From Tubiluchus corallicola (lineage: Eukaryota > Animalia > Priapulida): a stretch of 64,000 bases of DNA. Below the pieces are notes generated by a model. It was not told the DNA's origin and did no database searches. It saw nothing but the letters and a program-made list of their open reading frames with translations. Position 1 is the first letter of the stretch. Each line of letters begins with the position of its first letter. This document shows positions 9,601 to 60,994 of the stretch, piece after piece. The position numbers and the translations under genes are program-made. The DNA is taken from contig JAQGDQ010002379.1 of the NCBI GenBank assembly GCA_030141605.1, forward strand, positions 1 to 64,000, given 5' to 3'.

Positions 9601-12600
9601 ATCAGAGAAACAAGAGAAAGCAGGTTAAATCTTTTGTATTTAGATTCTTTTAAATATATAGAGTTATTTCCAGTCCGAAAGAAGTATGTATTAAGTTTAT
9701 ACATTTATGGAACTTACTACCCATTGAATTAAAACAAATAGAATCTCTCCACCACTTTAAAAAGAAATTAAAAGAATATCAATATAACAGGTTTCAACTT
9801 CCACATTGTGCATCTGATACTAATTACACAGACTCAACTTTCATCTACCCCCGCCCCTGACTCCATAAAATGATTAAAAATAAAACATTTTTAAGAAATT
9901 ATGTAATGTAATACGTGTTATGTTAGTTTTGTAATGTCAAATGTATAAATAGTGTAAATGTAATGAGTGAAATTTATGTAATGTAAAGCATGTTTCTGTT
10001 AATTGTGTCATGTCAAATGTATATGTAGTGTAAAATATGTCATGTAAAATTTAATGTACTTTTGTAATATTGTTTTATAAAAATATTTTAGTATGGTGTT
10101 TGTAAATATGTTCATTTGTATATAATTAGGCCTTAGTTTTGCACTTTGTTTTTTTTAAATATGCATTGGACGCATTTGTCTTGAACAGTGTTGTTATTTT
10201 AACATTACGCTGATCCTTACTCAATTTTATTATAATAAAGAATTAATATATATATATATAAGTGTGTTGACACAATTAATGTTTTACTTTGAACTTGTCA
10301 TAAACAGATAGCTGTTAATGATCTAACAATCGTGTTTGGTTTTAATTCAAGATAACCTCTTCTCTTCTTGCTATATTAATTGTTGTCTATAACTGAGTAA
10401 TTGTTCATTGGTACTGGTCTTACCGCAGGTTGAAGAAACCGTGAAAAAGTATCAAACAGCGAAAAAGAATCACCATAAGAAAACAATGGATGTAAGTAGG
10501 TACAGCACAGTGGTGAATTAATGTACATTTTTACTTCGTGTTGTTGAATCATCTGGTTGTTATCATCATGGTAAAAGGGACTATAGCGAAATTTACGGAA
10601 CAATACCAGAAGCAGAAAATATTTGTGATTAATTTATAGAGACTGACTTTTGACATGGCTTCATAGTTCAAAGATGGCAGCTGAAACATTGCTTAGGAAA
10701 AATAAACTATTTAACCTTTGTTGTGCACTTTTTCTTATTACCTCATCTTTAGGCTGTTGAATTGTTCTTACTCTAGTTTCTAATTAAACTATTAATCTTC
10801 CTTGAAAATAACTATTTGGTCTGATATGCTACCTTTTAGTTTTTAAATTATTCATTTAGTTGAAGAAATCGTATGAAAACAAGTGCAGGGAAGCTGATGC
10901 AGCAGAGCTGGACTATGAAGTGAAGAAAGACATCATGCCACAAAAAGACAAGGAAAAGGTTTGAATGTAAAATACCTGTAAAGAAATGATTAGGCTTGTT
11001 TGTGTTTTTGTTTTTGTTTACTTCTTGCAATGCACGATACATTTGTTTATACAAGTCTAACTTTGTTTAATTCACGTATAAGCTCTGCATGTTATGGTTT
11101 ACTCACACTCTTATAGTCTCATGGTGCTTGACTCTTTTCAGTTTTGTTAATAATAATATATTAACCATTTGCATGAATTCGTTTCAGTTGTTCCAGAAAA
11201 AGGACAAGCTGATTACTGCTGCCAGTTTGGCAGGTGGGAAAACTAGTTCATTTTTGTTACAATTGTTGCTGTCGCTTAAAAAAGAGTTTATACTCAGTGT
11301 CCAAAAATTTGAAAATGCCCAATTTTTCTAATAAACATCTGTTAGAATGTTTAGTCTAATCCTGGGGTGTGCAAATTATCTGACTAGCCAGGCCACATTA
11401 AACTTTCCCGCAATTCCTGCGGGCCACAGGCAGCTTGATTAGGGAGCCAAGTACAGAAAGGCCTAATAACGAATTTTTTTGCATCCGACCTGCGCACATC
11501 ATTACAACTACACTCAAGAAACTATTTTAGAAGTTGTTAAAATTTATATTACAAACCATATATTTCTACTTTCAGGACAGATAGTGGTAATTTCATTACA
11601 ATGCATATTAGTAATGTATATCACACAGTCTGTGTAGTACAGTGACATTAAGCTACAACCATCTTGTAAGGGTTAATGGCATCCGATCTAGTAGAAAAAA
11701 CTACCCGCACTATCTTTGGGATCGTGGCACAGACTTCACCTGGATACACTCAATTAATCGCCCAGGCCGCACTTTCATTAGGTTGACAAATCTCTTGCAT
11801 TTCCATTGCATTTGTGGCTGTTTAAAATTCATTTCATTTATTTCTTATAGCATTCACACTCTACGTAAGCTTGCACTTAAAAATAAAATAAAACTCGCAG
11901 TGTAATTGTTGAGAAATTTCTGAGCTGAAAATGTTTTTTTGTTTTTTATATCATGATAGAGTAACATGAGACCTGGTGCTAATTTTCTATCTAATGTAAT
12001 TGACAGTTTGTTATTGTTATTTTAGATAAGGCATATCAAGATGCAGTCACGGTACTTGAACAAACAAGAATTCACTGGGAAGAAGAAACAGAAATAGCTC
12101 TTGAGGTACGTCCTCCTCTCCTATTATTACCAGATATAGAATCACCTAGCATCAGTTTAATTCAGCGTTAAAGTTGTTATATAGGTTTTACACGTCATAT
12201 GTAGACACAGGAAAGTTCAAATGTGACTTAGGTAAGTCAAATGTAGAAATAGGAGTTTTGAATATGTTTTGGTAACTCAAATGTGACTTAGGTAAGTCAA
12301 ATGTAGATGCATTACTTTGAATAAATAGGTAATTAGCTCATTTGAGTGCAAATTGCAAAAAGATAAACCAAAGATAGTCGTCACCTCTTTCATAACTTTG
12401 AAAAATGTGTTTTTTATCCCTTCCCAAAGAACAGTGAATCACTAATTAGTTTTTTAAGTAATGCATTAGCACCGCATTAATGAATTAGTTTCTCTCAAAA
12501 AACATTGTTTATTTTAAGAATGTATTGTTTTCTCTAACAGTTCCAATGGTATGTAAAGTTTACAGAATATTAGTGAACTATTAGTAGACCTATAAAGTTC

Positions 12601-15600
12601 TTATTTTCACAGCAATTATTAAATTAAGATTAAAGGATATTAAATTTAACATCCTTAAACTTTACCACCTATCCACATTTGAGATACAAATGTCACATTT
12701 GACTTGACATGTGTCTACATTTGACTTACAAAAAACGCTTAAGATTTCTTGAAAACCATTGTTAACACATTTGAATTACCTAAATCTACATTTGAGTTAA
12801 CGCAGGTCTACATTTGACATGTAAAACCTATAGCTGCTGTTTATCTTTTAATGTTTGACTGTTTACGTGCTGTGTGCATTTTTGTGTTTGCACAATGATC
12901 GGGTCGATTACAATATTGTTTACATCACAGTCAGAGAGTTTTTCTCTCCAACCTTAGCAAATTGCTATGTAGTCACAGAAAACACTGTCCACAGAGGTTA
13001 ATACCACTGAATGCTTTATTAACATAATCAGTATGTCCAACATAACATAAATGTTCAACAGCTCCCATAAGTGGATTAACCTGACTGTTCAGAGCACAGG
13101 TATGTAATAACAGACAGGTGACTAGCAGGTAACAAACAGAAAAGCTGGCTAAAACCAAAAGCTTTACATTTCCGTCACAGATGGCGCCTCGTGCCCGATA
13201 AGTAAGATTAACAGAAAACAAAAAAAACTAAGCCTGCTGCATGCTATATCAGTTTTTTGTTGCTTGACATAGGAAAAATTTTCAGATTAAAGAATTGTAA
13301 ACCAGTTTTCAACTGTGTATATGTAAGCAAGATCTGTTATCGTTAGGTTTATTTATTAGATCCTGAAGTTTGTAGTGTGAGATACATTGAAATCTGATAT
13401 TTTTTTATAATTTCTATCTGCTTACACTTATCCTGGACCTCTAAATCAGGGGTGTGCAAATTGCGGCCCGCCGAGAGAATTTGTGCGGCCCGTGAAGAGA
13501 TTTTTCATCCTAATAAAAGTGCGGCCCGGGCGATTAATTGAGTGTATCCAGCTGAAGTCCGTGCCACGATCCAAAAGATAGTGCAGGTAGTTTTTTCTAC
13601 TAGATCGGATGCCATTAACGCTTACAAGATGGTTGTAGCTTAATGTCACTGTACTACACAGACTGTGTGATACACATTACTAATATGCATTGTAATGAAA
13701 TTACCACTATCTGTCCTGAAAGTAGAAATATGTGGCTCCTTGATCAAACTGCCTGTGGCCCGCAGGAATTGCGGGAAAGTTTAGTGTGGCCCAGCTAGTC
13801 AGATAATTTGCACACCCCTGCTCTAAATGCTAGTACAGCGAGCATATGATGCAGTTATGAAGCGCAGATATGTGATATCACATTGTACAGAGCATTTTTC
13901 TAGTGCCTAGGAAAATTAGGGTTCAAACTCAGGCAAAGAAGGCTATTATTCGAAATGTTGGAGATAAATTCAAAAAGGATTATTTGAGCAGTGTGCCAGC
14001 TTTTGTTGCTGATTTATCTCAGCGAAAAAGTTTTTTTTTACTTTTTGAGTTCCTCTATAGTGAATAACTGTATAGAGCTGTTCATTTCGCTCTGTTCTTG
14101 TTCTCGTTCATGTAATACAAAACTTTGCCATTTACTCGTTGTGAGGTAAACAGTGCACACTTGAATCTTCACAAAAATTTGGATTCCATAACAAATGCAA
14201 ACGTGTATTTATAATCTATTAACAACACGGTTAGCTTATTACCATTATTTCTCAACCAGTAGGAAGGGATGATGTAGAATACTTGTGCATTATTGATCAT
14301 CAGTGATTGGATGTATTAACTTTTGACATTGACATTTCACGCAGTTTCAAAATTGGGCAAAATGTTTTTGTTGTTGTTTTGTGGCATGGTGTAGGTGGTA
14401 TGGTCTGGTGTGTTTTTTTTATATTGTGACATCGCAATAAAGCACTTGCAGGAAAATTGTTGAGCTACTTAAAGGAACCGACAAAAGAGCATCATCCAAA
14501 ACATACCATGTTACTAAAGTTTGCACTTTTACAAGTTTTGCAAGTAAAATGTACATCCATGTGAACAAACACGTGTGGCAAGATAGCAGCCCAATGCTTC
14601 TCATTCCAGACTAACTGAATGTCATTCAAGTTGAAAGAATGGTTGGTCATGTTTTCTGAGGACCTGGTGGACATCGGCTGTGCAAGTACAAGGAAAGAAC
14701 CAGACCCTAACTTATTGATATTTTTATTGTAGACGCTGCAGACGATCGAGTCTGAAAGGATTCAGTTCTTGAGAAATTGCTGCTGGGTTCATGTGAATAT
14801 CAGCTCTGCTAACTGCGTAAGAGTTGACGAGGTAACAGACTCGTAATTAGCAAAACTATTTTGCGTGAAATTGATTTACTAAATGCATTAGCCAAGTTTT
14901 ACTTTTAACTGAACAAGTCATTTAGATCAGACATTATGATAGCAGTTGTGTCAGCTATACCAGGTCATTTTTCCTAATAATGTGGTAGAATTGCTAGTTA
15001 GAGATGGGTGAATATGCGAGATTGTTCAATTGATGGCCCAGGTTTGTGACATTTTCTAGAGGAGAGCAATGGCATTAGCTCTTTTTAGTAACTGTGGAAA
15101 CGGCTATGCAGATGCCCTGCTAGGGTAGATACGTGCTCCTTTAATGAAACTGTTTAGTGATTTTGTCCATGCATGTATTGTTTTGATAGATTTTTATAGC
15201 CTTTGTTGTACTCTTTGGTCTAGTTTTAGTCTTGTACCTTAAAGTAATTTAAAAATTTATGAGAACTGCAATAGAACTTGAGGGAGTGTTTCGTTTTTAC
15301 ATAATCCTGAGTATAATAATTTTTTGAAATAGTTTTATACTCAAATAAAATCTGTCTATCTATCTGACTGCATAAATGAGAACCTGTTCATATTTAGTTA
15401 TTTATCCTACACAGAATAATGGGCACAGGCAAAATACAAACGAAAATTAAGTTATATAATTATTATTTTTTATTTTGCGAAATATAAGATGGTAATACTA
15501 TGTAAACTACATGAAGATGCCATGTCTGTGACATTTATAGTCAATATCTAGGCTTATTGTGTGAGATTGTATCAAAGGTTCATATTTTTAGCATGCAAAT

Positions 15601-24293: not shown

Positions 24294-26520
24294 TCACATG
24301 CTTTCTTTTTTACACTTCACAATTCCCATGTGAGTGTTGTGCACTTGACACAACATGTTTCTTCTCATGCTTGGCGGGACTACAATACGTTGACCTTTGT
24401 AGACCATACCATCATACACAGCAAGATTATCTCTGCCTTTCCAAAAAGGTCTAACTGAATGTGGAACTTCTTTACAAGTGTCTGGCCAACCATTTAATAT
24501 AATTTTGTACAACTCGTATAATTCATTTGCTGTTGTCTCCTGAAACTGTTTGTATCTGTCTGGTGCCACTGATATGTGCTGTACCATATTAACATACACA
24601 GTTTCTATTTCTGGAGCTACATCTGATAAGTTAGCACGACTTAGCATATCACCTATCACTACTTCTTTGCCTGGTTTGTACATCATTTTAATATCATACG
24701 GCTGTAATTTAAGTAGCATAGATTGTAGTCTCATAGGTGCTGATGATAATGGCTTGCAAAAAATAGTTTGTAATGGTTTATGATCATTTTCTACACTGAT
24801 CTCTGTACCAAAAATGTAGTAATGAAATTTGCTACAACAATGCACAATGGACAGCATTTCTTTCTCAATCTGTGCATATCTTTGTTCTCCTTCACTCATC
24901 GTTCTAGATGTGTAGGCCACAGGTTGACCGTCTTGCAGCAAAACACCAACTGCATAACTACTTGCATCACATTGGATCACATGCTGCTTGTTGGGATCGT
25001 ACAGTGCCAACACTGGAGATTTACATGCCAGATCTTTGAGTTTCTGGAAACTTTCCATTTGAGGTTTGTCCCAGTGAAACAGAGTTTTGTCTCTAATTAG
25101 TTCCCTTAGTCGTGCATTTATTTCACTTAGTTTAGGAATAAATTTTCCTAGATACTGCATAAAACCTAGAAATCGTCGTACATCTTCCTTGCATGTGGGT
25201 GCAGGCATTTCTTGTACTGCTCTAACTTTACCTGGATCTGCTTTTATTCCTGTAGCACCAACCACATGACCGTCATACTTAACTTCAGCTTTTCTATACT
25301 GGCATATATCAAAATTTAATTTTAGATTCCATTCCATTGCTCGATTCACTAGTTTTTTCATAGTTTGGTCATGATGTTCATTGTCTGTACCAGCTACTAT
25401 GACATCATCCATGATTGCACGTGCTCCATCAATATCTTCAACCATTTTATCCATAATTCTTTGATAAATTTCCGGTGCTGACTTAATACCAAAAGGAAGC
25501 TTCAACCATCTATATCTTCCTAATGGTGTATTCATTGTGGTCAAAAGACTGGATTCATAATCCAAAGGAATTTGGAGATAGCCCGACTTTGCATCCACAG
25601 CAGAGAATACTTTTGCATCGGGCATTGAAGATACTACTTCCTCTACAGTAGGAATTGGGTAATTTTCCCTTTGAATGGCTTTATTCAGTTCTGAAGGATT
25701 AAGACAAATGTGAACTTTGCCATTCTTCACCACTGCTTGCATGGAACTTACCCAGTCAGTTGGCTGTGTGACTTTGGCAATATGTCCTTCTTTTTCCATT
25801 TCCTTCAGTTTTTCTTTAATTTTTGGCAGTAAGTGTGCAGAATATCTCCTTGGACCATGCACAACAGGTTTACAATTAGGATCTATCTTTAGTGAATAAG
25901 TACCTGGTAAAGTTCCAGTAGTTTTTGTTAGTTCAGGAAACTTTTCTTGCATGCCTTGTTGCTTAGGGTACACTTCTTGCACCTTTTTAATGCGTTCTAT
26001 TAGTCCCAACTTAGCACTAGCTTTACCTGAGAAAATAGGTGTTTGGTTCATTTCAACCACATAGTACTTAATATCTACTTGCTTTTTCTTGTAACTTGTA
26101 GCCAGTTTTACACACCCTATCACATCAATTTTATATCCAGTATATGATTGAAACTTTTTATTAGTCTTAACTAGATTGTTGCGACAAGTCATAGTTTTTA
26201 CTAATTTCCATGGCAAAAGACACTGTGCTGCACCAGTATCTATTTGGACTTGCACTTTATGGTTTGCTATTGTCACTGTTGCATACCAATCTTCGGTGTT
26301 TCCATCTGCACTATTAACAGTTTTAATCATTTCGAAAACATCTCCATTTGCATCACTATCTGATGAGACTATGTCTTCGACAATATTTATGCCGTTGTTT
26401 CTACATTTGCTTGCAAAATGACCTTTCTTTTTGCATTTGCTGCAAGTCTGATGAACAGCAGGGCATTGTGATTTACAGTGTATTCCATAACCACATCGAT
26501 GGCACTCTTTCTTACTAGGC
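24294..26520 (-). pseudogene. Gypsy zinc knuckle - protease - RT - RNase H, truncated at the start of integrase
   Basis: CHRCG..H..CPA...CSKCKKKGHFASKC; protease IDTGA; RT LPFGIKSAPEIYQ...IMDDVIV; RNase H CDASSYAVG...YAQIEKEMLSI...NDHKPL. The frame ends just after the integrase H-x-x-H-M-G motif, with no DDE core. Confidence 0.9.
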
Positions 26521-27222
26521 CAACTGTTGTTGGTCATGAATTTTAGTTTTAGGATGAAATTTGGATTTCTTAGTGTAGGTAGATCTTGATTTAGATTTCT
26601 GTTTGGGACGCACAGTGTGAATTTTACTATCTTCATCACACCTTGCATCGATAGCTTTCATACTATCTTGTGCTATTTCATAATTTTGTCCTATGCCAAT
26701 GGCCATATCTAGGGTGAGTTCGTCTCCTTTATCAAGACATTTTTCTTGTACTATAGATTCTTTGCACCTCAACACAATGGCATCACGTAACATTCTTTCT
26801 TATAGTACACCAAAACCACAGTTTTTAACTATAATTCTTAGTGATGTAACGAAATCATCAAATCTTTCATTCTGTTCTTGCTTTCTATGTGCAAACGCTG
26901 CTGTCACTCTTATTTCATTTCTTTTTGGAGCTATGTACGCGTCAAATTTAGCATAGACACCTTCGAGTGTGTGGTTTTCTGCGGGAATTTGGTTACCGCC
27001 TTCCACTCTTGCTGGTGCAAAATTAAATGTGCAATAGACTTCTCTACCTTTATCTCCGATATACGTCATAAGGTAGTTGACCTTTTCAATCTCTGTCTTC
27101 TGAGACAGTGGTCCGTTAAACGTGAAGCTACAATGCTGTTTAAACCTTTTCCACTCTTTATCCAAATTTTGTGCTCGCCAGTTCATGGACGGTTTATCGT
27201 GGTCGCCCATCTTCAAGCTCAC
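26515..27222 (-). pseudogene. Gypsy gag (in-frame stop at 26800-26802, frameshift near 26520)
   Basis: NLDKEWKRFKQH...YLMTYIGDKGREVY...FAHRKQEQNERFDDFVTSLR..KNCGFG*ERMLRDAIV..., a Mag-type gag signature. Confidence 0.85.
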
Positions 27223-28812
27223 ATAAAGGTTTTTATTTTTAACGTAGGCTTTGTTTCACCTTTTTTTTTAAATTTCCACTTCTGACACCATGTCAGATAT
27301 GCATAAATGATGTGTTTATTATCATAAAGATCTACGAGTAACATGGGTAGCCTTTTAGTACAAGATTCTACATCTATGACTATATGTTACATCTCCCTTT
27401 TTCACAAAGCGATACAATCCTATTGACCTCAAAACGGAATTTAGAATGTCAACTTCTAAGTCTACTACATTAAATACGAAAGTGTATGAATTACAGTACT
27501 TAAGCAAAGCTTCTTCCACAGTTTCACTACATCCCACTTCTGACACCATGTCAGATATGAATAAATGAATAAATGATGTGTTTATTACCATAAAGATCTA
27601 CGTGTAACATGAGTAACTTTTTAGTACAACATTCTACATCTATGACTATATGTTACACGTACTGTACATTGCCAAATAAACACTTTTGCAACAGGCCGCC
27701 GCATAGTAAAACTGCCATTTATTAAACCACTTACTACTGGTTCTATTAAGCGTAACTACTGTAATTAATTGCATTGATACAGTTAATTGTTAAATAATGC
27801 ATATTACATTATTAACTATAAATATTTCGGTTACCAACCCAAGTATCCTGTGTGAGTTCATGGATGAATTCAAAATGTGTGTGTAGTCATCTCACCATTG
27901 CCGCTCTAAGTTTCATATAAACAGGCTTGTTTCAGAAGAAAAAGTTCAGTAGAAATGTGGTGATATGCTGGAATAAGCTGTTCAAATTATGATGAAATGC
28001 AGCAGAGTTTTGTCATTTAGTAAATGACTGTATTGCAATGACTGCTGAAAGTGTATGCTGTTAGCTTTAGTCATGAAAGGAAACGAATGCTTTGAATATT
28101 ATTATTCAAAATGAACCTAAAACTCTGCATTATGACATCATAATGATGTAAAAATATTATTACATTAGTATAATTCCTTTTCGTACAGTGTAACTCGATT
28201 TTTGAACATTTAGCTATACCAGTATATGCATATCAGTGTTTATGCTGCACTGTTTCTTTTGAGACACCCTGTGTTATTCATAACCGGTGCAAGTTTGTGC
28301 TAATATCGGTAATCCTTTGTAATCTTAGTGCGTGCACATGCTTTTCACAATTTATGTTACTTAACTCTTTACGATTTTTTGCGCACTTTTATACTTTAGC
28401 CTCGTTGATTGGGAAAAAGCCTCATGATTGGCCTTTGCTCTTCTCATCAGGCTGTAATAAGTTAAAGAGATTTATGTCTTTTAATCCTTTCCAAGAAATT
28501 GTTATGTGACTAAATGGGTTACTGATTTGACTCAAGCATTTGCATGCACTTGTAGCTTTATTTATATACGTATTGTTTGACGAAGATATTGAGGATTGTT
28601 AAATATATTGAGCAGGGTATTTTATGTTAAATTATAATAGTGAAAAGTGGTATTTCTGTGATAAGTGACAATGGTAAAGGTATGACCAAATGCGTACATA
28701 AAGTGTGATGATGTATATATATATGCAACAGTTTGTATTCAAATGTGCAAGAAGTTTCATGTGTATGTAATGCACAATTAATGGTCTGGATTCACCTGAA
28801 AGTGATCGCTAT

Positions 28813-38804: not shown

Positions 38805-40187
38805 TCACATGAACTTCTTGTAAGCAAGCTCGCTAATAAGTGTAAACAATGCTACACCGATTCCAGATACCATCCCCCAAAAAACTACATTAAGTTGCTC
38901 CACATTAATTGATAACGTGCCTACATGCTGAACAGGTGGGTCTAAGCATTTTTCCGAAGGTTGCAGTAATTGTTGTAGCAGTTTGTCCACAAGACCGTGG
39001 TCTTTTAATGTAGCAAGAGCAGAATTTAGGGCTTCTGTGTAGTTACTTTTCTTTGGTACAACTAATGCTAATGGTGACGATAATTTCAAAAACGGGGAAA
39101 CAGAAAATCTGCATTTTCCATGTAATTCATAATCCTTAATTAAGAACAACTTTGCATAAGTCTCTTCTTCGAAGAAGGTGTATTTTTCAGTAGCTGTCAG
39201 CTCTAATGCTGTTTCTTCCTTGTCAGCAGGTACATTAGGATCCGCTTTCATTCTCTGCCACAGTTTTCTAAATTCTGGTCTGTTTTTCATTTGCATGGTG
39301 GGGCCATACTGACCTACTGTAACAGGGATTATGTCACTGTCTATCAACTCTTGCAATGTAGAGAATGGATAAACTTGCTTGCTTACAAATAATTTACTAA
39401 CCAGTGTGCACGTGTACATGGCTGTGATGATGCAAGCAAAAATCCACCACCATCCGATGAGCATCCTAGCGGATAAACATTCTGGTAAATATGTTCCACC
39501 TTGTTGGAGGTACGACGATAGTGTGAACCGAGTAAAGTACGCCTTACTTTCATTGTTTATCACTGGTTTTTCCAGTTTTCTTTGGCAGTTGCTCCATTTT
39601 ATAATCTCTTCCTCGCTGTGTGGCAGGTTTTTGCTGTAGTCAATATAGTAAAGTATTGTACCCACTACTATGCCATATAATACCAGAAGCAGCCACACGA
39701 GTGTGGTGAATGGGTCTATTATATTGAAACCTTGTAATTGATGTCTTTTTGTGATAAACACATGAGAATTATAAACAAGTGGGTGAAGAAACGTCATGCT
39801 TTTTGCTCTTTCTGGTAACATTGTGGATAATCCCAAAAACAAGTCGAATTCTCCTGTATCAATTACATTTTTTAGAGTTTGCAAATGTTTGATGTATGTC
39901 ACCTTGTACGTAAAGTTTGCTGCTTGGCTGAGCATCCGAAGCAGTTGATCTAGATATGGATTCATCGGATCGTCACTCCATGCTCCCACTCGAAGCATCT
40001 CTCCGTGGAGTAAAAAACCCTGTGTTCTGGGGTTTTTGCCATAAAACGCATTTAAATTGTACTGGTTATACGAGCTGTTGCAATTTTCAGTCCTTGTTTT
40101 AGTTTTACACAACGTTCCTTTGATGCAAAAACATTCAAGGAAATAAAAAACAATGGCGCACGTTTTGAGAAATGATGCAAATGTCAT
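38805..40187 (-). CDS. intronless divergent ionotropic receptor (IR / variant iGluR), ~460 aa
   Basis: ATG at 40187 with a signal-peptide-like start. S1 lobe (FDLFLG...ERAKSMTFLHP), M1 (PFTTLVWLL), pore loop (YLQQG), M3-type SARMLIGWWWIFACIITAMYTCTLVS, S2 lobe, M4 (QLNVVFWGMVSGIGVALF..E). No amino-terminal domain. Confidence 0.88.
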   Translation of the reverse strand: MTFASFLKTCAIVFYFLECFCIKGTLCKTKTRTENCNSSYNQYNLNAFYGKNPRTQGFLLHGEMLRVGAWSDDPMNPYLDQLLRMLSQAANFTYKVTYIKHLQTLKNVIDTGEFDLFLGLSTMLPERAKSMTFLHPLVYNSHVFITKRHQLQGFNIIDPFTTLVWLLLVLYGIVVGTILYYIDYSKNLPHSEEEIIKWSNCQRKLEKPVINNESKAYFTRFTLSSYLQQGGTYLPECLSARMLIGWWWIFACIITAMYTCTLVSKLFVSKQVYPFSTLQELIDSDIIPVTVGQYGPTMQMKNRPEFRKLWQRMKADPNVPADKEETALELTATEKYTFFEEETYAKLFLIKDYELHGKCRFSVSPFLKLSSPLALVVPKKSNYTEALNSALATLKDHGLVDKLLQQLLQPSEKCLDPPVQHVGTLSINVEQLNVVFWGMVSGIGVALFTLISELAYKKFM

Positions 40188-40743
40188 TTTTGCTCTGGAA
40201 GTTTGAATAATAAACTTTAGCTGATTCACATTATACAGTCATAATACGCCTATCCAGGGAGGATGACGATGAAAATGTTTTCAGCTGACCACTTTTATAC
40301 CACAATGCCAATGTGTTACATGTACTTTGTCATATATTTGCATTAATCACAATAGTGTGTGCACTAATTCACCAGGTGTGAATCTACATGTTAGTTTTGT
40401 CTGCCACATCTTTCTGGTGTTTAATTAGACTTCTCGTCCTGTTGCCACCTGTGTTAATATTACCACCTAGCTAATGTTACCTCAACACCTAAAATAATAA
40501 CGTATTGAAAAGCAGAATTCTGCAGAACTTACACCGAAAACGTTATTGGCTGTGCATTTGTTTGCTAGGTATCAAAAGATTTGGCTTTTGCATGCGGCAC
40601 TGGAGCTAGCGGATGCGGAAACTGCACAAGAGCAAATATACTACACTTAACCCTGAACGCGAGATGCAAACTGTACATTAAAAACGAAAAGTAACATGTG
40701 ATTAGTGTCTGCTATGTTGATCAAGTCCAGCTTGAGAATGAAG

Positions 40744-41107: not shown

Positions 41108-41693
41108 TTGAATCAGATTTTGTATCATTTATGTCTGCATCCATTAATAAACGAAGCCGCTCACTTTTCAGCAGAGTCAAAATCATGCTTAGATCTTATC
41201 ATTACAAATATTCCCAACTGGTTTGCTGGGACGTTTGTACAGACAGCGACTGCCGATGCATACAGACACTGTCCTATATTGAGCCATGTGAAATTTATAT
41301 ATATATATATATATATTAAGTAAAAAGGTATGTGAGGAAAGTTTAGAAGTATGAAAATGTTGATACTTCATATTTTTCAAATCAATTATCAAGTGTAATC
41401 TGGATGCTTTAATAACTCTCAATGTAAACCAAACATTCAAGTTAATTATAGATGCATTTACAAACTGTGTTGTGGATCTATCCCAAATCAAACAGTAATG
41501 ATTCATCGCGGAAACGATCCTTGGATGAATCCCAACATAAGAACACAAAAGCATCATATAATAAATATAAGGAAAGCTCCTAACACTCCACATTGGGATC
41601 AAAATTGTAAGAAATGTCAGGTTAGGATGTGGAATTAACAGACGCAGAATCATCTTTTTACGGATTTTCAAAATTACAGCTCGGACGACGGCA
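41108..41693 (+). mobile_element. decayed LINE ORF2 fragment (end of endonuclease and linker) directly abutting the palindrome
   Basis: LHPLINEAAHFSAESKSCLDLIITN... (APE endonuclease end) and NDPWMNPNIR (linker PW motif), frameshifted. Confidence 0.6.
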
Positions 41694-42658
41694 AGTAGTA
41701 TAGATGTTTTGCCTCTGGCCGATTTCCCCACCCCCCCCTTTGGCTGCCCGGGGGGGTGGGGAAAAACACCCCTAAAAAAGTGCGAAAATCCGCGAAAACC
41801 CCTAAAAAAGTGTGAAAACCCGTGTGAAAGTGCGCACGTGACCGAAATCGACGAAAAAGCGCGAAAAACAAAGAAAAACGAAGAAAAGGCGTGTGAAACG
41901 AGGTAAAAATTTTGCAGTTTTTTCCTCCCGCATGGCTTCATTTGGATCGAATGACCTTGAACTCTAGGTCACGTGACCAAAGTTCATTGACCCCTGGATG
42001 GCTTCTTTTTTTGACACCCCATTTTAAACCGCGCAAAACCGCGCGAAAGCATGTGAAAGTGTGTGAAAGTGTGTGAAAGCGCGTGAAAGTGTGTGAAAGT
42101 GCGCGAAAGCGTGTGAAAGTGTGTGAAACGAGGTAAAAAGCGCCTCAAACGAAGAAAAAAGGGAGAAGTGGAGTTCCCGCCGAGGACTAATTAGTGCTAA
42201 TTGGCGCTAATTGGCGAGCCCCTGCCACCCCTCCGCCGCGTGCAAACGTCCGTCCCGGGGGTCGGGGACACCCCCCCCCTACAACCCACCCCTCCGTCAC
42301 GTGGAATCGTCCATTGCAGGCAATGAGGGAAATCTTCCCCCCCCCCCACTCGCGCAGTGCCGGCCCTTTTCCGCGACCACTTCTCTCTCTCGGGTGCCCT
42401 CCCTTTTCCGCGACCACTTCTCTCGCGGGTTTAGATGTGTGTGTGTGTGTGTGTGTGTGGAGATTTATTTCAAACGCCAAAGTTCGATAAATGCATTTTC
42501 ACAAATCTTTTTTATTGATGGATTACAAAAAATTTTTTTACATTTTTTATGCAAAATACATACGTGCTAAAACTAGATTATTATTATTATGGTGACATGA
42601 TAGTTCTACATTTTACGTTTTTTCGCAAATTACACAAATTACGCAAATTACAGTAAAA

Positions 42659-43249
42659 CTACACTAATGACGACGAGTGAGTACATGGATTGTCGTCGTC
42701 GTCGTCGATGTGATACAGACAAACGTTATTGTTGTTAAAAACGAATTCGTTAAATTTGTGGAAAACGCGAGAGAAATCCTCGACCTTTGTCCCGCCCATC
42801 ATTATTATGCTTCCGGTGTGAAAAATGTTCAGAGTAATTTGCTCGCATTTGCAAGTTAGTTTGGGAAATAGTTCCACTTCGTAAAACACTTCTCTAAATG
42901 AATGCGTCGAAGGACGAACGAGTTCTTCGTACAGTGCACCCAGTTTCAATCTGCAGCGAATTTTGGCTCTGGCGGTGATGGTGCGAATTGCGATCCCGTC
43001 GGCGGGCGTCAGTCCGAGACCTTTCGAGAGTTCTTCGATCGCATTGCGTAGTACTTTTTCCTCCGAAAAACCGTTGGCCACCACGGAGCCGGAGGCAAAA
43101 ATCATCAGCGTCCCGCCCAGTCGCTTTAGCAGAACCATTTGCGGTTTTCTTTCGTAGCGTCTTCCGCCCGTTCTCCGCCGGAGTTTGTTCAGATCGAAGC
43201 GCTGCGAGAACGAAGCCGTGGCGACGATGTTGACCGTTTGGACTGACAC
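42659..43249 (-). CDS. divergent TATA-binding protein (TBP)-like ORF, left-arm copy (no ATG; GTG at 43249 or spliced start)
   Basis: Two TBP repeats: VNIVATASFSQRFDL...LMIFASGSVVANG and ...LKLGALY...FYEVELFPKL...LNIFHTGSIIMMGGTKVEDF..F. Confidence 0.85.
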   Translation of the reverse strand: MSVQTVNIVATASFSQRFDLNKLRRRTGGRRYERKPQMVLLKRLGGTLMIFASGSVVANGFSEEKVLRNAIEELSKGLGLTPADGIAIRTITARAKIRCRLKLGALYEELVRPSTHSFREVFYEVELFPKLTCKCEQITLNIFHTGSIIMMGGTKVEDFSRVFHKFNEFVFNNNNVCLYHIDDDDDNPCTHSSSLV

Positions 43250-43701
43250 GTTAGAACGTAGTTGGCAATTGTTTCGGACGCCCGAACCGCTCTGCCTTGT
43301 CCGTTGCTCTGCCAACGTATGGCGGGCGGCGGGTGCTCGCTTTCCAGATCCTCTACGCGTATGACCACGCGATTTTTGGGGAGATGTTTTTTGACGAAAT
43401 CGTACATCTCTGCTCCCTTGACGTAGGTGATCCCGCCTCTGGTGGTCTGTCGTAGAATGTTTTCCAATTCTGCGTACTCGATCATTCCCTCCTCCCACGA
43501 GATGCCGTGTATGTGTCTGATTAGGTAGTTGTAGGTGGATCGCTTGTGCTGGGGAACACGATTCCAGGGGTGGGGCGGTTTGAAGGTGTAGTTGTGATAT
43601 ATGCCGGTCTCTATTTCGCGAATTACCAAATTTTTGACCAGGTATTCTTCTTTTCCGCACTGGAAGGCATCTACGGTGAGAACTATGCTCGATTCAGACA
43701 T
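43189..43701 (-). CDS. DEDD-type 3'-5' exonuclease-like protein of the Polinton/adintovirus accessory type, left-arm copy (170 aa)
   Basis: Motifs VDAFQ...LVKNL...FKPPHPW...YLIRHIHGISWEEG...Y..L..IL...YVKG, matching my recollection of this family. Not verified by search. Confidence 0.65.
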   Translation of the reverse strand: MSESSIVLTVDAFQCGKEEYLVKNLVIREIETGIYHNYTFKPPHPWNRVPQHKRSTYNYLIRHIHGISWEEGMIEYAELENILRQTTRGGITYVKGAEMYDFVKKHLPKNRVVIRVEDLESEHPPPAIRWQSNGQGRAVRASETIANYVLTCQSKRSTSSPRLRSRSASI

Positions 43702-43924
43702 CTGTGACGATGGGGGGTCCTTCTACGCCGTCGGCAACGAGTTTTCCTTCGATGACGATTTGCTTGTGATTGTTCACAAATTCCAGAGACTTGATTTTTT
43801 CGAAGGTGTATTTTTTTATGACCTTGTTGGGGGCACTCTTGCGTGCGTTGGCGCGCTTGCCGCCCCGCGTCCCCGCTTGTTGTTGTTGCTTGCGAGGAAC
43901 GGTGGTTAGAGGTTGTTTGAAATC
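43694..43924 (-). CDS. small basic ORF/exon downstream of a strong splice acceptor (function unknown)
   Basis: Acceptor ttcttcttctcttgcag|G at 43924. The frame DFKQPLTTVPRK...KKYTFEKIKSLEFVNNHKQIVIEGKLV...TDV* overlaps the exonuclease ATG (ATGTCTGA). An alternative Arg-rich frame is also open. Confidence 0.4.
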   Translation of the reverse strand, partial: DFKQPLTTVPRKQQQQAGTRGGKRANARKSAPNKVIKKYTFEKIKSLEFVNNHKQIVIEGKLVADGVEGPPIVTDV

Positions 43925-43975
43925 CTGCAAGAGAAGAAGAACAATAGTTATAGTATTGTTGTTCGCTAACGACAA

Positions 43976-44233
43976 CTAGGCATTTTTGATGAGCCATTCT
44001 TTCAGATTTCTAGGTTTTTTGGGGGCAGTGGGGGTGAGCACCATCGGCGGCGATGGAGGGGGCGTCGCGGAAATTACGAGTTTGTCTTCTTCTTTATCAT
44101 CATCTTTCTCCTCTTCCTCCTCCTCCTCTCGAAAGATGTCCATTCGTGTCCCTCTCTCGCGTCTGCTTTTACACGGAGGGGCGGAGGTGCCGACGTCCGT
44201 GTCTGGCAGACTTCTTTCCGTCCAGTTTGTCCA
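43976..44233 (-). CDS. 5'-truncated acidic/Pro-rich ORF in the palindrome spacer
   Basis: ...RMDIFREEEEEEEKDDDKEEDKLVISATPPPSPPMVLTPTAPKKPRNLKEWLIKNA*, cut at the arm junction 44233/44234. Confidence 0.4.
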   Translation of the reverse strand, partial: WTNWTERSLPDTDVGTSAPPCKSRRERGTRMDIFREEEEEEEKDDDKEEDKLVISATPPPSPPMVLTPTAPKKPRNLKEWLIKNA

Positions 44234-44432
44234 GTTCCTCGCAAGCAACAACAACAAGCGGGGACGCGGGGCGGCAAGCGCGCCAACGCACGCAAGAGTG
44301 CCCCCAACAAGGTCATAAAAAAATACACCTTCGAAAAAATCAAGTCTCTGGAATTTGTGAACAATCACAAGCAAATCGTCATCGAAGGAAAACTCGTTGC
44401 CGACGGCGTAGAAGGACCCCCCATCGTCACAG

Positions 44433-44945
44433 ATGTCTGAATCGAGCATAGTTCTCACCGTAGATGCCTTCCAGTGCGGAAAAGAAGAATACCTGGTCAA
44501 AAATTTGGTAATTCGCGAAATAGAGACCGGCATATATCACAACTACACCTTCAAACCGCCCCACCCCTGGAATCGTGTTCCCCAGCACAAGCGATCCACC
44601 TACAACTACCTAATCAGACACATACACGGCATCTCGTGGGAGGAGGGAATGATCGAGTACGCAGAATTGGAAAACATTCTACGACAGACCACCAGAGGCA
44701 GGATCACCTACGTCAAGGGAGCAGAGATGTACGATTTCGTCAAAAAACATCTCCCCAAAAATCGCGTGGTCATACGCGTAGAGGATCTGGAAAGCGACCA
44801 CCCGCCGCCCGCCATACGTTGGCAGAGCAACGGACGAGGCAGAGCGGTTCGGGCGTCCGAAACGATTGCCAACTATGTTCTAACGTGTCAGTCCAAACGG
44901 TCAACATCGTCGCCACGGCTTCGTTCTCGCAGCGCTTCGATCTGA
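44433..44945 (+). CDS. DEDD-type exonuclease-like protein, right-arm copy (170 aa)
   Basis: Same ORF as 43189-43701 with 3 amino-acid differences (G/R, E/D, Q/R). Confidence 0.65.
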   Translation: MSESSIVLTVDAFQCGKEEYLVKNLVIREIETGIYHNYTFKPPHPWNRVPQHKRSTYNYLIRHIHGISWEEGMIEYAELENILRQTTRGRITYVKGAEMYDFVKKHLPKNRVVIRVEDLESDHPPPAIRWQSNGRGRAVRASETIANYVLTCQSKRSTSSPRLRSRSASI

Positions 44946-45475
44946 ACGAACTCCGGCGGAGAACGGGCGGAAGACGCTACGAAAGAAAACCGCAAATGCT
45001 TCTGCTAAAGCGACTGGGCGGGACGCTGATGATTTTTGCCTCCGGCTCCGTGGTGGCCAACGGTTTTTCGGAGGAAAAAGTACTACGCAATGCGATCGAA
45101 GAACTCTCGAAAGGTCTCGGACTGACGCCCGCCGACGGGATCGCAATTCGCACCATCACCGCCAGAGCCAAAATTCGCTGCAGATTGAAACTGGGTGCAC
45201 TGTACGAAGAACTCGTTCGTCCTTCGACGCATTCTTTTAGAGAAGTGTTTTACGAAGTGGAACTATTTCCCAAACTAACTTGCAAATGCGAGCAAATTAC
45301 TCTGAACATTTTTCACACCGGAAGCATAATAATGATGGGCGGGACAAAGGTCGAGGATTTCTCTCACGTTTTCCGCAAATTTAACGAATTCGTTTTTAAC
45401 AACAATAACGTTTGTCTGTATCACATCGACGACGACGACGACAATCCATGTACTCGCTCGTCGTCATTAGTGTAG
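44885..45475 (+). CDS. divergent TBP-like ORF, right-arm copy (no ATG; GTG at 44885)
   Basis: Same bipartite TBP fold as the left copy, with 5 amino-acid differences in the core. AATAAA signals follow at ~45624 and ~45671. Confidence 0.85.
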   Translation: MSVQTVNIVATASFSQRFDLNELRRRTGGRRYERKPQMLLLKRLGGTLMIFASGSVVANGFSEEKVLRNAIEELSKGLGLTPADGIAIRTITARAKIRCRLKLGALYEELVRPSTHSFREVFYEVELFPKLTCKCEQITLNIFHTGSIIMMGGTKVEDFSHVFRKFNEFVFNNNNVCLYHIDDDDDNPCTRSSSLV

Positions 45476-46891
45476 TTTTACTGTAATTTGCATAATTTGT
45501 GTAATTTGCGAAAAAAACGTAAAATGTAGAACTATCACGTCACCATAATAATAATAATAATCTAGTTTTAGCACGTATGTATTTTGCATAAAAAAATGTA
45601 AAAAAAATTTTTTGTAATCCATCAATAAAAAAGATTTGTGAAAATGCATTTATCGAACTTTGGCGTTTGAAATAAATCTCCACACACACACACACACACA
45701 CACATCTAAACCCGCGAGAGAAGTGGTCGCGGAAAAGGGAGGGCACCCGAGAGAGAGAAGTGGTCGCGGAAAAGGGCCGGCACTGCGCGAGTGGGGGGGG
45801 GGAAGATTTCCCTCATTGCCTGCAATGGACGATTCCACGTGACGGAGGGGTGGGTTGCAGGGGGGGTGTCCCCGACCCCCGGGACGGACGTTTGCACGCG
45901 GCGGAGGGGTGGCAGGGGCTCGCCAATTAGCGCCAATTAGCACTAATTAGTCCTCGGCGGGAACTCCACTTCTCCCTTTTTCTTCGTTTGAGGCGCTTTT
46001 TACCTCGTTTCACACACTTTCACACGCTTTCGCGCACTTTCACACACTTTCACGCGCTTTCACACACTTTCACATGCTTTCGCGCGGTTTTGCGCGGTTT
46101 AAAATGGGGTGTCAAAAAAAGAAGCCATCCAGGGGTCAATGAACTTTGGTCACGTGACCTAGAGTTCAAGGTCATTCGATCCAAATGAAGCCATGCGGGA
46201 GGGAAAAACTGCAAAATTTTTACCTCGTTTCACACGCCTTTTCTTCGTTTTTCTTTGTTTTTCGCGCTTTTTCGTCGATTTCGGTCACGTGCGCACTTTC
46301 ACACGGGTTTTCACACTTTTTTAGGGGTTTTCGCGGATTTTCGCACTTTTTTAGGGGTGTTTTTCCCCACCCCCCCGGGCAGCCAAAGGGGGGGTGGGGA
46401 AATCGGCCAGAGGCAAAACATCTATACTACTGAGGCCGAAATACCTGGGAAAGTTAAAGTTGTCCAAAAGTCCTGTAAGACCTTCACGACCTGGTAGAAC
46501 CAGTACTTGACAATAATTATTGAAATTATCTCTTTTACTGCATTTGTCACAGACTGGCAATGTTTAAAGCATGTGACGCAAATTGTGGCCTTCAACTATA
46601 GGTGACAGTAGGAAATTGTAATAAAACCCATCGACCTGTTTTTGTGACTTGATTATAGCTTTTTAATATAAGGCTTAGTTCTAAAAATCCTAACGTTGAT
46701 TGGGATAATATGTACAAAACATCCAGGTTACAGAATTCTTGAGATTCGAACACCAAACTATCACTGTCCGTTTGTTTTGGATTTTTTTTTGTAAAAAATA
46801 AACCAAAACAGGTACACCAGGGGAAAGTAATTTTTGTTATTATAATGGTTATTCTCGCGGTGATTTCCAAATAGTTGTTTTCTTTTTATAG

Positions 46892-60994
<14,103 letters not shown>

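Follow-up and report, generated by a model that had tools for sequence, protein, structure and literature searches.

How does one end of a Polinton-type element come to stand twice, in inverted orientation, at a single locus, and does the product have any life of its own? This question is raised by a 4.7-kb palindrome in the genome assembly of the priapulid Tubiluchus corallicola (GCA_030141605.1, contig JAQGDQ010002379.1). The window, that is, the whole stretch of DNA that was analysed, comprises 64,000 nt of the forward strand, and all coordinates given below are positions in it. The palindrome is real, and both of its arms bear an intact gene for a divergent TATA-binding protein (TBP), which had been overlooked in the first-pass annotation of this DNA. 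It likely represents a Polinton-type end that was genuinely duplicated in inverted orientation, as a one-off, the 9-nt fold-back junction still being legible and the divergent TBP gene now standing twice.

Arms, ends and junction of the palindrome

The palindrome is made up of two arms, a loop, two terminal motifs and a short microhomology at the junction.

41694 to 43900: left arm, an end of the Polinton-type family, with about 800 bp of non-coding sequence, behind which the terminal gene run lies on the minus strand
41694 to 41699, plus strand: terminal motif (AGT)2, with no target-site duplication (TSD) beyond the motif
43892 to 43900, plus strand: first half of the microhomology, GCGAGGAAC
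43901 to 44233: spacer (loop), parental sequence prolonging the left arm
44234 to 46431: right arm, an inverted copy of the left arm that begins mid-gene and is without the upstream portion of the gene run
44234 to 44242, plus strand: second half of the microhomology, after which family contigs leave the window
46426 to 46431, plus strand: terminal motif (ACT)2

After global alignment of the left arm (2207 nt) with the reverse complement of the right arm (2198 nt), we counted 2177 matches, 15 substitutions and 21 gap columns, in good agreement with the earlier proposal of two inverted arms of about 2.2 kb around a 333-bp spacer. The innermost 466 bp of the arms are free of any difference (p about 0.03-0.04). 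The element is rich in GC (0.49) and in CpG (observed/expected ratio 1.27) relative to the remaining window (0.36 and 0.68, respectively), and its ends read AGTAGT and ACTACT, both as had been noted before. These ends conform to the terminal motif of Polintons/Mavericks, (AG)3 or (AGT)2, the latter being the most frequent end motif in vertebrate Mavericks (PMC8097293; here and below, published work is cited from the searchable portions of each paper). The list of open reading frames (ORFs) confirmed that whole ORFs, overlapping and compactly arranged, are present twice and oriented outward. None of the genes for pPolB, integrase, ATPase or capsid was detected within the element among all ORFs of at least 50 aa, and Pfam searches with five ORF copies matched TBP alone. 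Judged from its genes and end motif, the parent was likely a Polinton/Maverick.

For the family comparison, contigs of four runs (X1-X4) from two studies were aligned to the left arm plus loop and to the junction; such assemblies lose rare forms, and contig depth is no copy number. Family contigs cover 30 of 30 bins of the left arm and loop, mostly with 95-100% identity. One contig of X3 (record 23, 43523-43940) passes 43900 without a break, in support of the earlier claim that the spacer is the continuation of the gene run of the left arm. The first-pass annotation also saw an abrupt cut at 44233, but the family contigs from both studies agree with the window up to 44242 and only then enter other sequence: X3 record 20 covers 44205-44242 with 0 deviating letters, X1 record 1 likewise reaches 44242, and loose ends past this position are carried by 3 X1, 1 X3 and 5 X4 contigs. 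Since the contigs match through 44242, the segment 44234-44242 is parental sequence. It is the exact inverted complement of 43892-43900, so the break lies within a 9-nt inverted microhomology. At a fixed junction, 9 matching nt would occur by chance with a probability of about 4e-6, although 9-nt inverted pairs as such are common in the element end (33 in 2.5 kb).

Among the contig pieces listed, 29 of a total of 260, none bridges the junction (44233 to 44243), contigs being apt to drop rare forms; these pieces include all five X3 contigs, from the second study. The result speaks, as modest evidence, against the junction being a major form of the parent family in the sampled runs, and it is compatible with a few copies. 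The window letters at about 44198-44204, belonging to a short replacement, occur in no aligned contig, and therefore the four runs do not represent the window's own copy.

Two further observations were made along this alignment. The private replacement (44198-44211) includes a 5-bp mini-hairpin (44201-44205 with 44207-44211), 30 nt from the main junction, and possibly records a second small template switch. [quoted passage not shown]

Ageing of the arms and origin of the duplication

The differences between the arms carry the mark of age. Transitions account for 12 of the 15 substitutions, and 10 of the 15 lie at CpG (rough p 0.005 for the CpG share). In the coding parts 8 of 11 differences are non-synonymous, with zero stops; they fall in the TBP core from 44885 (5 of 6 non-synonymous) and in the neighbouring 170-aa ORF (3 of 5). 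An X3 contig (record 22, 42643-43395) spans 10 arm differences, of which 7 show the letter of the right arm and 3 that of the left arm (p 0.34 for symmetry), and therefore private changes exist on both arms. From the CpG bias of the 15 substitutions it follows that both arms aged in place, and the element is likely a dead, ageing insertion today. Letters common to both arms at 43148, 43558 and 43674 differ from the X3 contigs and from most depth of the other runs, as expected for one template or for one subfamily; together with the identical inner 466 bp, they lean toward one template.

The explanation we prefer, to which we assign an even balance of probability, is that one end of a high-copy, likely Polinton/Maverick family was inverted and duplicated, likely once and by fold-back, and that the product is now likely dead. 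In this scheme a strand would break or stall about 2.55 kb from the terminus, and its 3' end near 44242 would pair with 43892-43900 and then prime copying outward to the terminus, which gives exactly the observed layout. A single molecule would serve as the template, and copying would halt at the terminus of a linear (protein-primed) template or be followed by re-cutting there. Fixation in the chromosome would take a TSD-less route, either break repair or a one-ended or alternative transposition losing one flank. The present-day effect would be none, or a hairpin RNA if a transcript crosses the element. A form with a 333-nt loop is what we understand by 'copy-back' (panhandle), rather than the 'snap-back' of the first-pass annotation. 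That inverted duplications can arise through fold-back priming at short inverted repeats is established (PMC10622511), and snapback defective genomes are produced by adeno-associated virus (AAV) (PMC8235507).

The following points weigh against this explanation. No TSD of 4-8 bp at offsets 0-3 was found at the element ends, and hence the 6-bp duplication looked for at the window copy is missing. The flanking hexamers, ACGGCA and GAGGCC, match at 3 of 6 letters (chance 0.17), and their decay from a true TSD at the divergence of the arms has a p of 6e-6; decay therefore cannot explain the missing TSD, and an extra step is required. Integrase-made Polinton insertions bear a TSD of 5-8 bp, usually 6 bp (PMC10748475, PMC8097293). 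Had two separate insertions been joined, the microhomology and the CpG decay would be expected just as much. The four runs showed no read or contig that spans the junction or the two flanks, and terminal-motif, TBP and 170-aa-ORF scans of viral and metagenome collections yielded no parent with pPolB, integrase or capsid, but were empty or gave chance matches. With the terminal motif, a 20-mer matched 3 metagenome loci and a 16-mer matched 58 viral loci, over at most 21 nt and without a tblastn match to TBP or the 170-aa ORF; the three metagenome matches are located inside a Rab-like gene. For TBP and the 170-aa ORF no locus was found in IMG/VR.

The two flanks share no similarity and are not mirrored. 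The left one is organized as follows.

41320 to 41693: left flank, with a high-copy host repeat (41320-41675) that a few contigs exit at 41672-41675; 18 letters rich in GC and CpG then lead up to the element

These 18 letters are possibly filler or a truncated target. By its motif the repeat resembles a fragment of a long interspersed nuclear element (LINE), though a LINE homology search gave no match.

Both the absent TSD and the unrelated flanks are directly accounted for if the palindrome combines two separate insertions of one subfamily, oriented with their like ends to the outside, which became fused through a microhomology-mediated deletion or through Ac-type alternative sister-chromatid transposition, each flank then stemming from a different insertion event. 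The family is indeed high-copy, several Polintons occur at one locus of C. elegans with rearrangement between them (10.1101/2024.01.15.575659), and in Ac composite insertions a single fractured end makes up the inverted repeats (10.1101/2020.01.07.897926). A unique junction with unrelated flanks, named in the first-pass annotation as the sign of two joined insertions, is in part what was found here. Such a joining, however, requires two close and opposite copies of the same minority subtype, the arms sharing letters unlike most of the family depth, and the identical inner 466 bp suits local copying better; on balance we regard it as rather unlikely, though as the leading alternative. The palindrome could also be an ordinary internal deletion derivative of a parent with gene-bearing TIRs longer than 2.55 kb, the 9-nt match being then a direct repeat between the TIRs, and full-length butterfly Polintons with gene-duplicating TIRs of about 2 kb have been reported (10.1101/2025.02.07.637071). 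A deletion in place would, however, retain the TSD, which is not present; a TIR border at 43900 is unlikely, given that X3 record 23 crosses it unbroken; the branch points at 41812 (X2, X3) and 42548 (X3) hint, as leads only, at a shorter TIR; and the TIRs of vertebrate Mavericks measure 46-1447 bp (PMC8097293). We thus consider a long-TIR parent improbable.

The origin offered by the first-pass annotation holds as regards the Polinton-type ends, the high-copy parent running past the spacer and the template switch, now traced to the 9-nt microhomology; its other half, a non-autonomous, defective-interfering-like mini-Polinton that helpers replicate, package and re-insert, found no support. Both (AGT)2 ends are intact, as such a replicon would need, but there is no TSD, the arms are decaying, an X3 contig is unsplit at 43900, and the failure of all 29 pieces listed of 260, including the five X3 contigs, to bridge the junction argues, as modest evidence, against a major class, though not against a few copies; a mobile element of this kind is quite improbable. 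Least probable is an assembly artefact, either a fold-back chimeric read or a mis-join via a collapsed repeat. In its favour, no spanning read was seen and the window's copy is unrepresented in the contigs of the four runs; against it, CpG-biased transitions are found on both arms, the terminus is precisely where the duplication stops, a 9-nt inverted match of the parent serves at the join, and the flanks are unmirrored, whereas a chimeric fold-back read would mirror the flank. A pure chromosomal fold-back, as in the breakage-fusion-bridge cycle, was rejected, because the duplicated sequence reaches just to the terminus of the element, with no mirroring of the flanks.

The duplicated TBP gene and the neighbouring reading frames

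The gene run carried by the arms consists of the TBP gene, as the outermost ORF of each arm, and of smaller ORFs toward the loop.

44885 to 45475, plus strand: divergent TBP gene, right copy, open frame
42659 to 43249, minus strand: divergent TBP gene, left copy, open frame
45624 to 45629, plus strand: first AATAAA after the TBP stop, with a mirror copy at 42516 on the minus strand
44433 to 44945, plus strand: 170-aa ORF, right copy
43189 to 43701, minus strand: 170-aa ORF, left copy
43694 to 43924, minus strand: small basic ORF, behind a polypyrimidine/AG tract (43925-43955); the right arm has its tail only (44234-44440)
43976 to 44233, minus strand: 3' part of an acidic ORF, truncated by the junction

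The two copies matched Pfam PF00352 with E values of 4.3e-22 and 6.8e-22 (78 bits against a cut-off of 22.9), in two stretches that correspond to both TBP repeats. A total of 32 PDB sequences were matched; the top one bears a locus name, and all others are entered as TBP or as TBP fusions. The AlphaFold model, predicted from a 24-row alignment, reached a pLDDT of 94 and a pTM of 0.86, and the top Foldseek matches of this model were TBPs, with a TM of 0.84 to 3oc3_C and with giant-virus TBPs leading the viral matches. The two repeats and the predicted saddle fold are those of the TBP family. As in cellular and viral TBPs, three of the four phenylalanine positions and the YExELF stirrup align; in contrast to the solved eukaryotic TBPs, to which the identity is 21-26%, P-x-M replaces the first phenylalanine and an N-terminal extension is lacking. 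For the roles of these residues we assume that the four phenylalanines kink the DNA by intercalation and that YExELF forms the stirrup.

This TBP is distant from those of cells: one relative at 59% was found among 156 candidates, and 2 of 118 representatives matched with an E value of 1e-10 or better. A quick tree (118 rows, 140-400 aa) placed it in a 16-row group (SH-aLRT 94, unstarred) of unnamed mini-TBPs of 145-204 aa, which share P-x-M at the position of the first phenylalanine, and none of the 10 TBP clusters looked up bears a name. No ATG precedes the domain, and the first in-frame ATG, at 44996, lies about 37 codons inside it; the start may be the GTG at 44885 or a splice acceptor at 44890-44891. 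The sequence TATA[AT]A is absent from the element on both strands. In the intact parent, TBP would likely be the element's own promoter-binding factor, as the modelled fold suggests. The label 'TBP' appears in figure legends on mid-sized eukaryotic linear double-stranded DNA (MELD) viruses with an adintovirus-like PolB (Starrett et al. 2021, PMC8502044, Fig. 5), and in literature searches, with supplements outside their scope, these legends were the only place where TBP is tied to the Polinton/adintovirus group. The protein described here would thus be a further, very divergent member of a Polinton accessory family that elsewhere, in searchable papers, is little more than a label on a figure.

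The 170-aa ORF scored 0.96 to Atlas clusters without a name, most of them eukaryotic, whereas its score to Maelstrom (PF13017) was 0.86, so that a Maelstrom or 3'-5' exonuclease-like nature is a lead only. It gave no Pfam match, no homologue among 29 candidates and no PHROG, and its structure model was unusable (pLDDT 37.5). The three terminal ORFs, which overlap, each start just after an acceptor-like AG (43925-43955 on the minus strand; 44431-44432 and 44890-44891 on the plus strand), the tract at 43925-43955 being splice-acceptor-like by its letters. By eye, this suggests that the three ORFs may share a leader with alternative 3' splicing.

Hairpin RNA, surroundings and known systems

Whether the palindrome could act today depends on its transcription. 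In analogy with Mu killer, which acts against MuDR, it might be a natural animal 'Polinton killer', a fold-back fixed 1.5 kb upstream of a host receptor gene and yielding small interfering RNAs (siRNAs) or PIWI-interacting RNAs (piRNAs) against the TBP of its own family; we consider this a long shot. The folded part of the element has a 400-bp perfect stem. No AATAAA or ATTAAA occurs until 45624 on the plus strand or 42516 on the minus strand, about 1.4 kb into the second arm, and therefore a long hairpin covering the TBP gene is feasible. If this were true, the siRNAs or piRNAs would target the factor that switches on the whole high-copy family, and the 9-nt junction would be a fossil of Polinton copy-back replication, Polinton replication having been studied mostly in silico (PMC10748475). 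If transcribed, the palindrome would serve ready-made as a hairpin directed at an endogenous virus family of high copy number; silencing by this route has so far been demonstrated with transposons of maize. The element itself, one decaying copy that lacks a TSD, is modest. The parental 9-nt inverted match at its junction shows a way for one end to be copied onto its counterpart, and such copying would also explain the origin of the gene-bearing 2-kb TIRs of Polintons.

The content of the window is that of an animal genome, with microsatellites, a retrotransposon with long terminal repeats (LTRs) and a ligand-gated channel gene. The last is a single-frame ligand-gated ion channel gene on the minus strand (38805-40238; PF00060, PF00497), which starts about 1.5 kb from the element and presumably resembles an ionotropic chemoreceptor. 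Farther away are a 2.2-kb element at 11556-13735, likely a non-autonomous DNA transposon, with TIRs of 241 bp (95%), in which an ORF of 120 aa is lacking, as is, near the called ends, an exact TSD of at least 4 bp; the LTR retrotransposon on the minus strand (24294-27255), with gag-like and pol frames (protease, reverse transcriptase, RNase H); and an exon-like frame on the plus strand (57804-58178) with a PH domain (PF22697, just below the cut-off).

Of the titles listed in a literature search, none pointed to a fold-back Polinton; Repbase and the 2006 Polinton paper were outside its scope, and described palindromic or non-autonomous forms may be missed. With Polintons, Mavericks and adintoviruses the palindrome shares the (AGT)2//(ACT)2 ends, the compact overlapping ORFs, the GC and CpG richness relative to the host and the many near-identical copies (PMC8097293, PMC10748475, PMC8502044). 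It differs from them in its size of 4.7 kb, against 13-25 kb, in being without core genes and TSD, and in inverted arms of 2.2 kb that exceed the usual TIRs of 0.1-1.5 kb. The butterfly Polintons come closer in this respect, with inverted ends of about 2 kb and each gene present twice, and they include a mael-linked group, to which the Maelstrom score of the 170-aa ORF (0.86) is a lead only; they are, however, full-length and carry hexon and adenain in their TIRs, whereas in the palindrome it is accessory genes that are inverted, and the core has been lost (10.1101/2025.02.07.637071).

The copy-back architecture, two identical termini derived from one end plus a parental loop, is found in the palindrome. 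In AAV snapback genomes, too, one genome end is copied onto itself to give two identical termini (PMC8235507); these genomes are extrachromosomal and packaged, whereas the palindrome is chromosomal and ageing. In architecture its closest known counterparts are the killer loci of maize, where one end of an element, partial genes included, is duplicated in inverse orientation. Mu killer has both TIRs from one end together with about 1.3 kb of inverted adjacent gene sequence and silences the MuDR family; antisense transcripts arise inside the locus, and the read-through model is disputed (PMC3440606). Mu killer and the composite Ac insertions, or 'Ac killers', resemble the palindrome in that both termini come from the same parental end and in that partial gene copies, with arms of 1.3-2.5 kb or more, are duplicated in inverted orientation at a single locus (PMC3440606; 10.1101/2020.01.07.897926). 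They are cut-and-paste transposons of a plant with shown siRNA silencing, whereas the present case is an animal one with a Polinton-type parent, in which the genes point outward and end within the arms and the junction can still be read from its 9-nt microhomology.

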